A stretch of 29,275 nt of DNA from Coleofasciculaceae cyanobacterium RL_1_1 (GTDB taxonomy: Bacteria; Cyanobacteriota; Cyanobacteriia; Cyanobacteriales; Geitlerinemataceae), in the NCBI GenBank assembly GCA_012033105.1, contig JAAUPN010000024.1:1-29275 (forward strand), written 5' to 3'. Positions 1,788 through 28,285 of this stretch are shown here, piece after piece. The notes under the pieces are model-generated. The model did not search any database and was not told the origin of the DNA. It was given only the letters and a program-made list of their open reading frames with translations. The position numbers and the translations under genes are program-made. The first letter of the stretch is position 1. The number at the start of each line of letters is the position of its first letter.

Positions 1788-1905
1788 ATACGAAATCCGG
1801 TTCTATATGAGAAAAATACAAAATACTTATGAGCACTGAGCGGAGTCGAAGTGCGGTGTCCACCTAGAGCGACGATCTAAGATTATGCACAATCGGATTT
1901 CGTAT
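1788..1905. repeat. 118-bp unit bounded by a 12-bp perfect inverted repeat (atacgaaatccg / cggatttcgtat) enclosing repeat copy A
   Basis: The inverted repeat can be read directly. It lies in the intergenic region upstream of ureD. Confidence 0.4.
1831..1857 (+). repeat. structured short repeat copy A (gagcactGAGCGGAGTCGAagtgcggt)
   Basis: It shares the GAGCGGAGTCGA core with four other loci. The 5-bp stem is gcact/agtgc. Confidence 0.6.
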
Positions 1906-9603: not shown

Positions 9604-9632
9604 GAGAGCGTTGAGCGGAGTCGAAACGCGGT
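9604..9632 (+). repeat. structured short repeat copy B (gagagcgttGAGCGGAGTCGAaacgcggt)
   Basis: The core is the same. The stem is gcgtt/aacgc, which compensates for the change relative to copy A. Confidence 0.6.
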
Positions 9633-11401: not shown

Positions 11402-11475
11402 ACCGCACTTCGACTCCGCTCAGTGCTCTTTCGACTCCGCTCAGTGCTCTTTCGACTCCGCTCAGTGCTCTTCGG
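11402..11475 (-). repeat. repeat copy C: tandem array of 3 x 21-bp units (tttcgactccgctcagtgctc) ending in a full stem-bearing unit
   Basis: The 21-bp period can be read directly. The array lies between the hypothetical gene and wecB. Confidence 0.6.
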
Positions 11476-16891: not shown

Positions 16892-17848
16892 TTAAACATG
16901 ATGAAACGGCAGGGCTAATAGTGGAAAACAGGCGAGGACAGCCCACAGCCAGCCGTTAATCTTGAAGGTGAGTTGATCCGCTTGGTGATCGGCATTCTGG
17001 ATCATGATCATTGATTGATCAGGGTCGATTTCGGGGTCAATTAAGGCCGTGATTCGGGCTTCAAAGCTGTCTATGGATGTGAAATCATGAAAGCCGATCC
17101 CGGCAATGATGGGGGTGGAGGTCGCGGTCTGGGTGGAGTCTTGTTGAGCCGATCGCGCGACGGTTAGCAGGGTGTCAGCGAGCAACAGGGGATCGATATA
17201 CTGAGCCGCCCAGCGATCGGCGCGTAGTTCGCGCAGCAGGATCAGCTCGTGCCAAATCTCGCGCGTTTCGGGCAGCCAGCTCGTCCAGCGTCGCAGCCAG
17301 CCCAGTAGAAAGAAGGTGAGGGTGTCATGGTAGTGAGCGTGGGCGCATTCGTGGGCGATGATCGCTTCGAGTTGCTCAGACGACAGACTCGTAAGGAGCG
17401 ATCGCCCGATGGTCAATTCGGGTTTGATAATGCCGACCTGCCCTGCGAACCAGGAGGGCGAGGCAATGGTACGAAGTTCGAGGGTTTGGTCTAGGGTTGG
17501 CGAGATGAACGCTGTCTTCGGGTAGTGCTGTAGTTCGCGCTGAATCTGCCCCGATCGCCCCAAAAGTGCAATCAGCAAGACGGTAATGGCGGCGATCAGA
17601 CTGCCGCTGCACCAGAGGCCGATCGCACTGACGGAATAGCCAAACATTGTCCCGTGTGTCCCCATCACGACCACGGCTAGGACGGCGATCATGCACCACA
17701 GGGCAGGTACAACAATCGCGCCGATCGCCCACGACCAACGTTCACGCCACGATCGCGCTTCGAGATGACAGCGCTCGATCGCGCCGACACAATACCGGCG
17801 AGTTCCCCAGGCTCCGGCCACGGCCAAGAGCAAAATTGCAATATGCAT
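16892..17848 (-). CDS. BlaR1/MecR1-type M56 peptidase signal-transducer membrane protein
   Basis: Four predicted TM helices are followed by the zinc-peptidase motif HECAHAHYHD (HExxH). The gene overlaps the BlaI-like repressor at ATGA (17848). Confidence 0.7.
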   Translation of the reverse strand: MHIAILLLAVAGAWGTRRYCVGAIERCHLEARSWRERWSWAIGAIVVPALWCMIAVLAVVVMGTHGTMFGYSVSAIGLWCSGSLIAAITVLLIALLGRSGQIQRELQHYPKTAFISPTLDQTLELRTIASPSWFAGQVGIIKPELTIGRSLLTSLSSEQLEAIIAHECAHAHYHDTLTFFLLGWLRRWTSWLPETREIWHELILLRELRADRWAAQYIDPLLLADTLLTVARSAQQDSTQTATSTPIIAGIGFHDFTSIDSFEARITALIDPEIDPDQSMIMIQNADHQADQLTFKINGWLWAVLACFPLLALPFHHV

Positions 17849-18270
17849 TAACCTTCCTCCTCGCGTTGACGGCGAACATCGCGCAGACGCTGGGCGATCG
17901 CATCCAGGCGATCCAGGCTATCGCGATCGAGATTGTCGGCAAAGGCGGCGACCACGTCCGCGTTGCCCAGTTCTAAGAAGTTGCTGAGATGTTCCCGCGC
18001 CCGCAACACACGCGCCGACTGGCGATCAATGGTGGCACTCCAGAGAAACGCGCGGCTTTGTTTGGTGCGCTTGACCCAGCCTTTGTCCTCCAAGCGCTGC
18101 AAGATCGTGGTCACGGAGGAATACGCCAGTTCGCGATCGGGATCAGATAAAATCCGTTCATGGATCGATCGAGCCGTCACCGGTTCGAGATCCCAGAGGA
18201 TGTCAATAATTTCGCTTTCAAGCGAGCCGAGAAATAACCGTTTGGGCTGCGGTTCCGGGAATGCTGTCAT
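17848..18270 (-). CDS. BlaI/MecI/CopY-family winged-helix transcriptional repressor
   Basis: The sequence LGSLESEIIDILWDLEPVTARSIHERILSD..YSSVTTILQRLEDKGWV is the penicillinase-repressor fold signature. The 140-aa size fits. Confidence 0.8.
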   Translation of the reverse strand: MTAFPEPQPKRLFLGSLESEIIDILWDLEPVTARSIHERILSDPDRELAYSSVTTILQRLEDKGWVKRTKQSRAFLWSATIDRQSARVLRAREHLSNFLELGNADVVAAFADNLDRDSLDRLDAIAQRLRDVRRQREEEG

Positions 18271-18443
18271 CCGTTTTACGAGTTAATGAATGTAGGCAAT
18301 GCGACGTATCGTCTAGCTTAAACAGTTTTCGGGTCTTCGACGAGTTCGGCGAAAAGTTTGAGATCCATAGTTTCATGCAGGACCGACGTAACCCAAGCAT
18401 CCTGCCTGTCCCCGAGCAAGCTAGAGGCGTGGGCTAGGCAGAA

Positions 18444-18700
18444 AGGGCAAACGCATACTCAGTTTTCATCGCAAATCAAGTCGGGGTTCGAGCACTGAGC
18501 TTGTCGTTGGCGCAGCCTTCGCTTTGCGAATAGTGCGGCCACTTCCTACGAAAATCGCCAGCCTTCGACCAGCTCAGGCGGGACTTACGCAGAAGTCCGA
18601 CTTCTAAACGAAACGTCGTCGTTCTAACTCTCAGAACAACGGGAGAAGTCGGACTTCTCACACCCCTTGCGTAAGTCCCGGTGGGGTATGCGTTTGCCCT
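18444..18700. repeat. 257-bp nested inverted-repeat (MITE-like or structured-RNA) element
   Basis: The outer inverted repeats are perfect 15-bp terminal inverted repeats, agggcaaacgcatac at 18444-18458 and gtatgcgtttgccct at 18686-18700. Inside them are 27-bp arms (cgggacttacgc-agaagtccgacttct) with a 10-bp bulge and an inner 5-bp hairpin. Confidence 0.5.
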
Positions 18701-18756
18701 GCGATAGATCGAAAACCAGCCCCGCAACCCGGATCAGCGCAGCTATGGGCGAGATG

Positions 18757-20275
18757 TTAGCCGGTACGCCAGACCAGTTTTAAACGGAGTAACCAACGGG
18801 TAAACAGGGCGACGAAGAGTGTGTAGACGATCGCCCGCATCATGGCTAAAACGGGCGCTTGGGTGAGTAAGCTCAACCCTGGATGGAGGCGCGTCAGATT
18901 AAACAGCGGGAGCAGCACATTGGCATAGGCGACGTAGGCCACCATGGGATTGCGGCCATTGTCGATCGCCAGTTGCAGCCAGCGCCGTGTCTGAAAGGGT
19001 TGATCGAAATCCTCGATCGCGATCGTCAGATTCACCCACAAAAACAGCGACATCGCGACGGTAATGAAAAAGTAGCTTAGGGTCGGTGGATCTTTGTGAA
19101 TGCCGTCTTGAAACGGTTCAAAAATAGCCCCAGGATCAGCCAATACGATCCCCAGCGGATGAGCTGCGAGCGAAATCGATCGCGAGCGGCGAGGGTTGTT
19201 CCACGGGGTAGGCTTGCGAGGATGATCACCATGCCGCCGATCGCGATCGTCGTCGTCAGTCCGACCCAACGCCCTTGTAAACCGACCAGTAACACCAGTA
19301 ACATCACGCCCAATAGCTTGGCGATCGCCAACCAACGCCAGCGAGAGACCCGAGGAATTTCGACCTCGCGACTCGTCTCCAGCGCTCGATCGCGCCAGTA
19401 GCGCAGCAGCAAATCGCCCGCGATCGTTCCCGGCACGACGATCAACAGATATTGCAGATATTCCACCCGAAACAGCCAGGGGATCGGCGAACCATTCCAC
19501 AGTGACATAACCCAGCCGTCCGCCGTCGCCGATATTCGCAACGCCAACAGCAACACCAACGCCCCCGAGCCGCCACCGACCATCGCGATCGCGTCACCAG
19601 CCACAGCAGCGAGCCGCCCAGCGACGAGACCGCCAACAACATTAAAATCACGTCTTGCCGTGCCAGATCAAACCCGGTATCGTCACGAAACGGCAGGATC
19701 GCCAGCAAAACCACGATCGCCAGCCAGCCGCCAAGCTTGGCCGCGATCGGCAGCCAGCGAGGACACCGCGATCGCCAGGATTGCGGCCAACGCACATACA
19801 CCAACGTCAACAGCCCAAACCCAAGTAGCGTTAACCCCCAGGTGAGATCCGTGGGTTTGGCGCTGAGGTGGTTTGGGCGGAAATGTTGCAGGACGATCGC
19901 GAAGGCGCTGAGTTCGAGCCAGCGGCGGGCGATATCCCCAAGAAGACGGGCGATCGCGATCGGAGTTAACGGACGATCACCGACGAGGCGATCAATTCGC
20001 CGCGACAGTGCGAGCGGAATCGAGACGCCCATCACAAACAAAAACAGCGGAAACACCCAATCCACCCAAGTCAAACCGGGCAGCAGGGGATCAAAAATAA
20101 AATCGGGGGGCGCGACCTGGGCGTGATACATCCAGGCTGGCAGCGGCGGTTTGCGGGGAACCAGCCCGGAAAAGACCATCATCAAGACCGCAAGACCGCG
20201 CAGGGCATCGAGGGCGTCGGCGCGATCGATGCCAGGGTTAACCGAGGTGGACTCCGGAGGCGGTGAATCGTGCAT
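18757..20275 (-). CDS. DUF1624/DUF5009 (HGSNAT-like) polytopic membrane protein with C-terminal extension; two apparent frameshifts (about 19560-19600 and 19080-19130)
   Basis: Three overlapping minus-strand ORFs (19442..20275, 19077..19604, 18757..19500) are each hydrophobic and in different frames. The N-terminal motifs LDALRGLAVLMMVF and VDWVFPLFLFVMGVSIPLA are typical of DUF1624. Confidence 0.5.
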
Positions 20276-20353: not shown

Positions 20354-20512
20354 TTATTGAAAGAAGAAGCCAGACAGTAACAAGGGAACGATTAATAGTG
20401 CCACGACAATGACCGTTAAGGTGGTGGGATCAACGTCGATTTCGATCGGCGGAACCGGCGTTTTTTCGCGCGTGACAACATCAGGCGAGGTCGAACGGGT
20501 AGGGGTGCTCAT
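20354..20512 (-). CDS. candidate small protein (52 aa) with a C-terminal TM helix, translationally coupled to hisH
   Basis: Hand translation gives MSTPTRSTSPDVVTREKTPVPPIEIDVDPTTLTVIVVALLIVPLLLSGFFFQ. Its ATG overlaps the hisH stop (ATGA at 20509-20512). It is below the 60-aa cutoff of the ORF track. Confidence 0.3.
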   Translation of the reverse strand: MSTPTRSTSPDVVTREKTPVPPIEIDVDPTTLTVIVVALLIVPLLLSGFFFQ

Positions 20513-21139
20513 GAGGAAGCCTCCGCAAGTTGAACAAAATTTGAAAGCAGCTTTAAGCCAGCATCGGACGATTTTTCGGGGTGAAACTGGACGGCCATCA
20601 GGTTGTCACGGGCGATCGCGGCGGTGACGTGCTGGCTGCCGTGGTGTACCGTTGCGGCTTTGATGCTGGGGTCGATCGGATCGACATAATAGGAATGAAC
20701 GAAATATACCCAAGGCGAGTCACCCAGACCGCCCCACAGTGGACTGTTTGGCTGGACATACTCAAGCTGATTCCAACCCATATGGGGAATCGTGATACCG
20801 GGTTCGGGGGGTGAAATGGCGCACCGTGCCGGGGATAATTCCGAGGCCGGGTTCGGAACCTTCTTCGGAACGGTCAAACAAAATCTGGAGTCCGAGGCAA
20901 ATTCCTAGGAACGGCTTACCGGACTCGATCACGGTCTTGATCGTTTGTTCGAGACCGCGCGATCGCAAATGTTGCACCGCCGGATCGAACGACCCCACTC
21001 CGGGTAACACCACCGCATCCGCCGCCAGAATTTCTGCGGGAACGTCAGTCACCAGGGTATGACCGCCCGCATTATCCAGCCCTTTACAGGCTGAATGCAG
21101 GTTACCCATGTCGTAGTCGATGACGGCGATCGTTGCCAT
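20509..21139 (-). CDS. hisH: imidazole glycerol phosphate synthase glutamine amidotransferase subunit HisH; frameshift near 20800-20860
   Basis: The N-terminal ORF has IAVIDYDMGNLHS...GKPFLGICLGLQ with the catalytic Cys. The C-terminal ORF has HMGWN...FVHSY...QFHPEKS with the His/Glu pair. Together they total 210 aa. Confidence 0.85.
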
Positions 21140-23840: not shown

Positions 23841-23999
23841 ACCGACAAAATACTCAACCGTTTATACCATTAGGCTTTACCAATGACTATTGTTCGATGT
23901 TTTTTCAGGCAGGACTTGCGCACTGACCGGCTAGAACCATGCAATACCGTGGGCGCATTGCCATGACGCCCCTACGAGTTTCGATAGCGAGGTTGACGG

Positions 24000-27851: not shown

Positions 27852-27885
27852 AGAGTATTGCCCAAACATAATCGCCTCAAAAAAA

Positions 27886-28130
27886 GCTGAGAGCAATGAG
27901 CGGAGTCGAAGTGCGGTTCTTAACTGAGACGAGAGTGTCCTAATTTAGTCGGCTTGCATTCTATCAGGCATCATCGCCGATCTCAAGAAGTGCGACTTTT
28001 CTCAAAAGTCGCACTTCTACATCAGTCCGAAGTCTGATCGCGATAGTCAGTTCACCCAAAAAAGCAAGACCAGTTGACTCTGTTCTGTTTGCTCAAACAC
28101 CGCGTTTCGACTCCGCTCAACGCTCTCAGC
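27886..28130. repeat. 245-bp MITE-like composite element bounded by 33-bp terminal inverted repeats (repeat copies D and E) with a central perfect 15-bp hairpin at 27986-28018
   Basis: The left terminal inverted repeat is gctgagagcaatgagcggagtcgaagtgcggtt. The reverse complement of the right one is gctgagagcgttgagcggagtcgaaacgcggtg. The central hairpin is agaagtgcgactttt ctc aaaagtcgcacttct. Confidence 0.55.
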
Positions 28131-28285
28131 ATATTCTGACAATCATTGAACGGATGATAACGGTTAGGCCAACGGCGACGCGGCCAGCAAGACCCACACC
28201 CCGGCTAAACCCAGAATACAAAGCAGCCACAATACACGCCGTATGGTCATGGTTGTCTGGGATAACGGGGTCGGGTTCATCCGGT

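Follow-up and report, generated by a model that had tools for sequence, protein, structure and literature searches.

A decayed composite MITE with ISAs1-family ends as the probable occupant of the blaI upstream spacer in the cyanobacterial MAG RL_1_1

Elements of the ISAs1 family are recognised by inverted repeats of 14-22 bp which start with CAGGG and by a 10-bp direct repeat (PMC11946415), and besides ISAs1 of Aeromonas salmonicida the family includes the cyanobacterial members ISMae35 and ISAsp2 (PMC2779907, PMC3542288). Small non-coding elements which share their terminal inverted repeats (TIRs) with an IS, form a very stable predicted hairpin and are found between genes as multicopy families are represented by Nezha/ISNpu3 of Anabaena and Nostoc (PMC3184786) and by MaeMITEa-h of Microcystis (PMC2779907). 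For ISPlag1, an IS701-group element of Planktothrix with the terminal repeat CAGGACTTACGCAAG... (CAGGACTTACGCAAGCACG...), short remnants consisting only of the TIRs, 197 bp in length, have been documented in Planktothrix (PMC2464740).

The element analysed here is located in the 29,275-bp window, the whole stretch of DNA under study, which corresponds to one complete contig in the MAG Coleofasciculaceae cyanobacterium RL_1_1. On the - strand, a DUF5009/HGSNAT-like gene is followed by a 486-bp spacer containing the element, by blaI and by a BlaR1-like gene (Table 1). Like the ISAs1-family IS, the element has TIRs of 16-18 bp starting with CAGGG, but it encodes no transposase and measures only 259 bp, its interior is unrelated to theirs, no target duplication flanks it, and one terminus carries A for C. 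With Nezha and MaeMITEa-h, as these have been described, it shares a small non-coding structure, IS-shared TIRs, a very stable predicted hairpin, a location between genes and membership of a family in which some members are multicopy, while it differs from them in its parent IS family, ISAs1, in combining two or more hairpin modules and in the absence of direct repeats. We consider it highly probable that the element is a decayed, non-coding composite MITE with ISAs1-family ends, carried as a passenger between the DUF5009 gene and blaI.

Table 1. Features of the blaI upstream region, the 259-bp element and the dispersed stem-loop unit (positions are those of the window unless another locus is named).
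Feature	Position	Strand	Remarks
M48/M56 BlaR1-like gene	17848 to 16892	-	downstream of blaI
blaI/CopY-family repressor gene	17848..18270	-	Penicillinase_R, E = 3e-27; ATG 172 nt from element
Left terminal inverted repeat aAGGGCAAACGCATACTC	18443..18460	no strand	ISAs1-type end; A at first base, C in family
Left inner TIR arm AGGGCAAACGCATAC	18444-18458		repeat search; 15 nt, 100% complementary to 18686-18700
Subterminal region of MITE subfamily	18461..18494	no strand	common to one end of L124 and L043
Hairpin A module	18495..18577	no strand	arms 18495-18511/18561-18577, 17 nt, 82%; GAGCACTGAGC-type unit at stem base
Hairpin B module	18579..18680	no strand	outer arms CGGGACTTACGCA 18579-18591/18668-18680, 13 nt, 100%
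Near-palindromic 15-mer AGAAGTCCGACTTCT, 5' copy	18591..18605	no strand	pairs with 18644-18658, 15 nt, 100%
Innermost hairpin	18617..18641	-	11 pairs; weak T-rich tail on - strand
Near-palindromic 15-mer AGAAGTCGGACTTCT, 3' copy	18644..18658	no strand	pairs with 18591-18605
Right terminal inverted repeat GGGTATGCGTTTGCCCTG (reverse complement CAGGGCAAACGCATACCC)	18684..18701	no strand	
Right inner TIR arm GTATGCGTTTGCCCT	18686-18700		repeat search; 227 nt from left arm
DUF5009/HGSNAT-like gene, upstream	18757..20275	-	two overlapping ORFs; stop codon at 18757, 55 nt from element
Stem-loop unit copies, window	1831-1857, 9605-9632, 11402-11472, 27890-27917, 28099-28125		
Stem-loop unit copies, elsewhere	L001 34 and 7454; L043 ~737-752; L127 6198-6213		

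The GTDB species-representative genomes, among which that of RL_1_1 does not figure, were scanned for both 14-mers of the terminal repeat at a distance of 212-242 nt, with one match in Nodosilinea sp. LEGE 06152 (L001:7012-7255), while a metagenome scan with CAGGGCAAACGCATACYC as query matched at least 120 loci. Pairing of the latter matches, with up to two mismatches allowed, resulted in at least fifteen full-length elements (1106-1314 bp) and at least fifteen independent short elements (141-561 bp), the window's own element excluded. The conserved end, (C)AGGGCAAACGCATAC(TC), belongs to a roughly 1.2-kb ISAs1-family IS which is widespread in cyanobacterial assemblies. These full-length elements share 16-18 nt with the TIRs of the window element, and among the matches listed over 100 ends of IS or MITEs, all in contigs of cyanobacteria, are identical to its left TIR. 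A full-length copy of 1214 bp (L021:3178-4391) encodes a 379-aa protein (ORF L021:3194-4333) which is recognised by the NCBIfam model NF033564 for the 'ISAs1 family transposase' (437 bits; cut-off: 70) and contains the Pfam domains DDE_Tnp_1_assoc (PF13808) and DDE_Tnp_1 (PF01609). The duplication around this copy is 11 bp long (CCTACAGCTAA), and those of L035 and eight MITEs are 10 bp long. Both the family ends (CAGGGCAAACGCATACTC) and the duplications match the hallmarks of ISAs1 elements (PMC11946415) and hence fit this family. No similarity to an ISAs1 transposase was found in the 29-kb window.

Judged against the other family members, the window element really extends from 18443 to 18701, with GCCCTG as its right end. 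The perfect 15-bp TIRs described in the sequence-only reading were recovered by the repeat search as the inner arms, and they are not unique, the same end being borne by the ISAs1 IS and by many short derivatives. The 16-mer CAGGGCAAACGCATAC represents a useful marker for this abundant cyanobacterial ISAs1-type IS and MITE family. A minority of the TIR matches are chance occurrences in non-cyanobacterial coding sequence, and five single-ended 17-mer matches in viral contigs, all in non-cyanobacterial sequence, were likewise judged to be chance. A tandem arrangement of IS and MITE was observed in L025, where a full-length ISAs1-type IS (456-1672) is followed after 10 bp by a 217-bp short element (1683-1899) whose ends are slightly mutated versions of the IS ends.

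Among the matches listed, the short elements measure 141-143 bp at eight loci, one of which was sampled twice (L052 and L060), and 212, 217, 227 (two elements), 244, 371 and 561 bp. Perfect 10-bp target duplications flank 8/15 of these other short elements, while clean duplications are absent from 6/15 of them and from most of the full-length copies among the same matches, which may be an effect of assembly on short metagenome contigs. An identical 142-bp MITE is present at three JAESGV01 loci (L033, L069 and L112), each time with a different duplication. The short elements with ISAs1 ends are genuine, transposed MITEs.

The left 123 nt of the window element, which take in the terminal repeat, the subterminal stretch and the greater part of hairpin A, share 74% identity with one end of the 212-bp L124 element and 67% with the 371-bp L043 element, and a further L124-type copy is carried by L057. 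These three loci, as well as L113, L114 and L127, are contigs of assembly ERZ1740068 with ~26x coverage each; given the common assembly and coverage they probably derive from one genome, in which the subfamily would be multicopy (at least three copies: L043, L057 and L124). The 29-kb contig itself contains one copy of the element. The MITE interpretation, one of two offered when the letters of the window were first read, is thus borne out by the ISAs1-type ends, the multicopy subfamily relatives and the transposed short elements. The Nodosilinea element (L001:7012-7255) has the same ISAs1-type ends, (C)AGGGCAAACGCATACTC, a similar size (244 bp) and an intergenic location upstream of a gene, and also lacks a target duplication. 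It is, however, a perfect 244-bp palindrome, whereas the interior of the window element is different and modular. This palindrome (NZ_JADEWR010000028.1) lies ~80 bp upstream of a gene encoding a 1044-aa product and has a predicted fold of -255 kcal/mol; it shares with L009, L026 and L075 the 44 nt next to the end, which marks the palindrome as an inverted duplication of one IS end.

The left half of the element, comprising the left TIR, the subterminal region and hairpin A, belongs to a MITE subfamily that is probably present in several copies in the genome of another cyanobacterium. The window copy would have arrived through mobilisation in trans: an ISAs1 DDE transposase produced by a ~1.2-kb full-length copy would bind both ends, cut at the CAGGG termini and insert the element elsewhere with duplication of 10-11 bp of the target, a transposition step that we infer from the properties of the family. 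Hairpin B may have arrived by a second insertion, into the first element. The resulting element would now be without a dedicated function, although its structure of about -120 kcal/mol might incidentally hinder read-through from the DUF5009 gene into blaI.

A search for target-site duplications of 7-12 nt around the window copy found none, the best candidates matching at 4/7 and 6/11 positions. The absence of a duplication and the A for C at the left terminus suggest that this copy is probably immobile, a fossil. Since the arms are perfect and the duplication is nonetheless absent, simple age-related decay does not explain the loss, and recombination between copies, an adjacent deletion or a chimeric MAG assembly is more likely than slow decay. 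An assembly artefact affecting the structure or at least its junctions, with the contig joined through a repeated MITE so that the two flanks do not belong together, would account for the missing duplication. Many of the listed family matches lie ~110 nt from contig ends, indicating that these repeats break assemblies, and most full-length copies among them, on short metagenome contigs, similarly lack duplications. The element is, however, imperfect, modular and internally consistent, ordinary genes line the contig for 18 kb on one side and 10 kb on the other, and a misjoin would not create the homology to L124-type MITEs, so that an assembly artefact is extremely improbable as an explanation of the element.

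Hairpin A is an additional hairpin which was not singled out in the initial reading, and is homologous to L043, L057 and L124; GAGCACTGAGC is found at 18490-18500. In hairpin B, the perfect 13-nt and 15-nt pairs together make up a 27-nt arm whose 3' side carries a bulge of 9-10 nt, CACACCCCT(T), in agreement with the second pair of 27-bp arms and 10-bp bulge that had been reported, and the further hairpin reported within these arms corresponds to the innermost hairpin. Both 15-mers conform to AGAAGTC[C/G]GACTTCT, each being a near-palindrome. Perfect inverted repeats of at least 14 nt were obtained in 0/1000 shuffles of the 486-bp spacer, the longest in the shuffles being 13 nt, which places the observed repeat beyond chance. 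The predicted RNA fold has an energy of -123.5 kcal/mol on the + strand (z = -7.0) and -125.0 kcal/mol on the - strand (z = -7.1), compared to approximately -89 +/- 5 kcal/mol for the shuffles. The ORFs across the element are all short (18476-18727 on the - strand, 83 aa with a TTG start; 18358-18498 on the + strand), the 83-aa product has no Pfam match, and the element is non-coding.

The two strands fold equally well and the arms are perfect Watson-Crick complements, which indicates inverted repeats at the DNA level and not an RNA shaped by selection. The second of the two original interpretations, a long structured transcript, accordingly finds no favour in the folds, and the Rfam search of the window was empty at the gathering score, with only two short sub-threshold matches (13.6 and 8.2 bits) at E <= 10. 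The same observations bear on the alternative that a cis-regulatory structured RNA or small RNA gene of blaI, of a leader or riboswitch-like kind, occupies this position, or that the element carries the BlaI operator. Its location ahead of blaI, on the strand that encodes the gene, and a fold far more stable than shuffles would accord with such a role, but the equal stability of the two strands, with their perfect stems, and the Rfam result argue against it, as do ends which are transposon ends at more than 100 unrelated loci among the matches listed. The GCATAC/GTATGC half-sites of the element, 227 bp apart, are unsuited to a BlaI/CopY-type operator. Together with the absence of the element from blaI relatives and the lack of a predicted promoter-like site, described below, these points make an RNA or operator of blaI very improbable. 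A retron ncRNA, considered because of the TIRs and long hairpin, was ruled out as there is no reverse transcriptase on either side, while an integron attC site was ruled out as the ends do not fit RYYYAAC/GTTRRRY. ARAGORN predicted no tRNA or tmRNA.

The nearest homologues of the window BlaI are encoded in L007 and L008 (81% and 76% protein identity, respectively), where the blaI upstream spacers are 140 bp and 323 bp long and the upstream genes differ from that of the window. Neither spacer contains comparable inverted repeats or structure, and the predicted fold of the L008 spacer is no more stable than those of its shuffles (z = -0.55). No sigma-70-like promoter was predicted between 18150 and 18900, and a search for a hybrid outward promoter at the blaI-proximal end of the element also found none. 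The suggestion that the element occupies the expected position of the blaI promoter or operator is not borne out by this comparison, the element lying 172 nt upstream of the ATG and the spacers of the relatives being unrelated and unstructured. The structure being absent from both relatives, the region is not conserved promoter sequence. On the sequences compared, the element is not a conserved control feature of blaI, and the appropriate annotation for the blaI upstream spacer of RL_1_1 is a transposon remnant, not a regulatory RNA or operator. Two partial resemblances to the element were attributed to chance. A 22-nt segment of L008 resembles the right end (CAAGGCAAACCACACCCCACC; 19/22 positions), but is not reported by blastn, has no inverted partner and lies in an unstructured spacer, while a GC-rich segment of L007 is likewise not in the blastn output and has no inverted partner. 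The 9-mer CTACATTCA precedes blaI both in the window (18292-18300 on the - strand, some 25-33 nt from the ATG) and in L007 (4920-4928). It possibly represents a TACA-type half-site for a BlaI/CopY operator; its sharing across two spacers of ~150 bp is only weakly significant.

A further alternative is exaptation of the MITE, which would now serve as a transcription terminator, an insulator or an RNA-stability element and keep the DUF5009 transcript apart from the blaI-blaR1 operon. The element lies between co-oriented genes, 55 nt after the stop codon and 172 nt before the ATG, its structure on the - strand is very stable, and three terminator-like hairpins are present on this strand within the element, compared to 0.7 expected; the title of one review (PMC10969869) concerns functional roles of MITEs in prokaryotes. 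The T-tails of these hairpins are, however, weak, the element is not conserved in the blaI relatives, and the position is also one where neutral insertions survive. We regard exaptation as decidedly unlikely and retain the decayed composite MITE as the preferred reading.

Hairpin B, with a length of 102 bp, has no homologue in the L124-type relatives or elsewhere in the 785 kb of fetched loci. Its arms, CGGGACTTACGCA(AG; AG follows on the right arm), agree with the terminal repeat of ISPlag1 in 12/13 and 14/15 positions, while they differ from it by a G at position 2 on both arms. In contrast to the documented ISPlag1 remnants, hairpin B is 102 bp in length and nested in another MITE, and no duplication, other copy or IS701 transposase was seen here. 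In the fetched loci these ends recur only in L113, as the (C/A)AGGACTTACGCA termini of a 92-bp element flanked by a 5-bp duplication, ATTGA. Hairpin B itself has no target duplication, its flanks (TCAGG and GTGGG) being different, and no clean empty site was identified. In the absence of a homologue or duplication, it is the similarity of the terminal repeats that argues for a nested origin, and on this basis we give even chances to hairpin B being a second mini-element nested in the first. A solo copy of CAGGACTTGCGCA at 23910-23922, which agrees with the ISPlag1-type repeat at 12/13 positions and has no inverted partner nearby, may be a remnant or a chance occurrence.

Small stem-loop units with the conserved 12-nt loop GAGCGGAGTCGA, or GAGCGAAGTCGA in Nodosilinea, are dispersed in the window and in other loci (Table 1). 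Their 5-bp stems vary in a complementary manner (GCACT/AGTGC, GCGTT/AACGC and TCCCT/AGGGA), and three exact 21-bp tandem copies are located at 11409-11472. The segment gagcactgagc, which had been pointed out as shared with repeat copy A, is confirmed as the GAGCACTGAGC unit, which is shared with the dispersed repeat family of the window. In another genome the GAGCGGAGTCGA stem-loop unit is also found beside or inside ISAs1-type MITEs. As for the GAGCACTGAGC(GGAGTCG) unit, it directly adjoins the same ISAs1 end in L127, the L043 MITE contains a copy, and in L124 and L057 it is located at the foot of the hairpin A stem. At 27877-28139 there is a second MITE-like element, ~263 bp in length. Its terminal repeats (41 nt; 83% complementary) are built of the stem-loop unit with loop GAGCGGAGTCGA, and it has a perfect central hairpin, AGAAGTGCGACTTTTCTCAAAAGTCGCACTTCT, whose stem is identical to the hairpin B 15-mer at 13/15 positions. 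The earlier observation that the arm motif nearly matches this central hairpin was therefore correct (AGAAGTCCGACTTCT; 13/15), and within the window AGAAGTSSGACTT is restricted to the 259-bp element and to 27986/28018. The broader suggestion that the elements are related modules stands as far as the occurrences of GAGCACTGAGC(GGAGTCG) in L127, L043 and L124/L057 are concerned, but does not extend to a common origin with the hairpin of the 27886-28130 element.

It is unlikely that the composite arose through stepwise colonisation of a mobile hairpin by an IS701-type mini-element and the GAGCGGAGTCGA stem-loop unit, or that it is a MITE exapted as a terminator or insulator which determines the level of blaI-blaR1 expression. 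In the former case, the GAGCGGAGTCGA unit would represent an undescribed class of very small repeats, either mobile or recognised by a protein, which target MITEs. As a decayed composite MITE, the element is of low interest beyond its annotation and its use as a family marker, and opens no new biological question alone; its modular, nested build illustrates the accumulation of hairpin repeats in the intergenic regions of cyanobacteria.

BLAST comparison of the element and its 3.6-kb neighbourhood against plasmids resulted in no match, exact-protein look-ups of the window BlaI and BlaR1-like proteins returned no record, and none of the fetched loci overlaps the window at E <= 1e-10. The two ORFs of the DUF5009/HGSNAT-like gene (19442-20275 and 18757-19500) overlap on the - strand, which suggests a frameshift, either in a pseudogene or through a sequence error in the MAG. 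Another apparent frameshift is observed at 20509-21139, where two overlapping ORFs on the - strand (20762-21139 and 20509-20877) match the N- and C-terminal halves of a glutamine amidotransferase class-I domain, respectively. The cyanobacterial HIP1 octamer GCGATCGC is present in 39 copies in the window.
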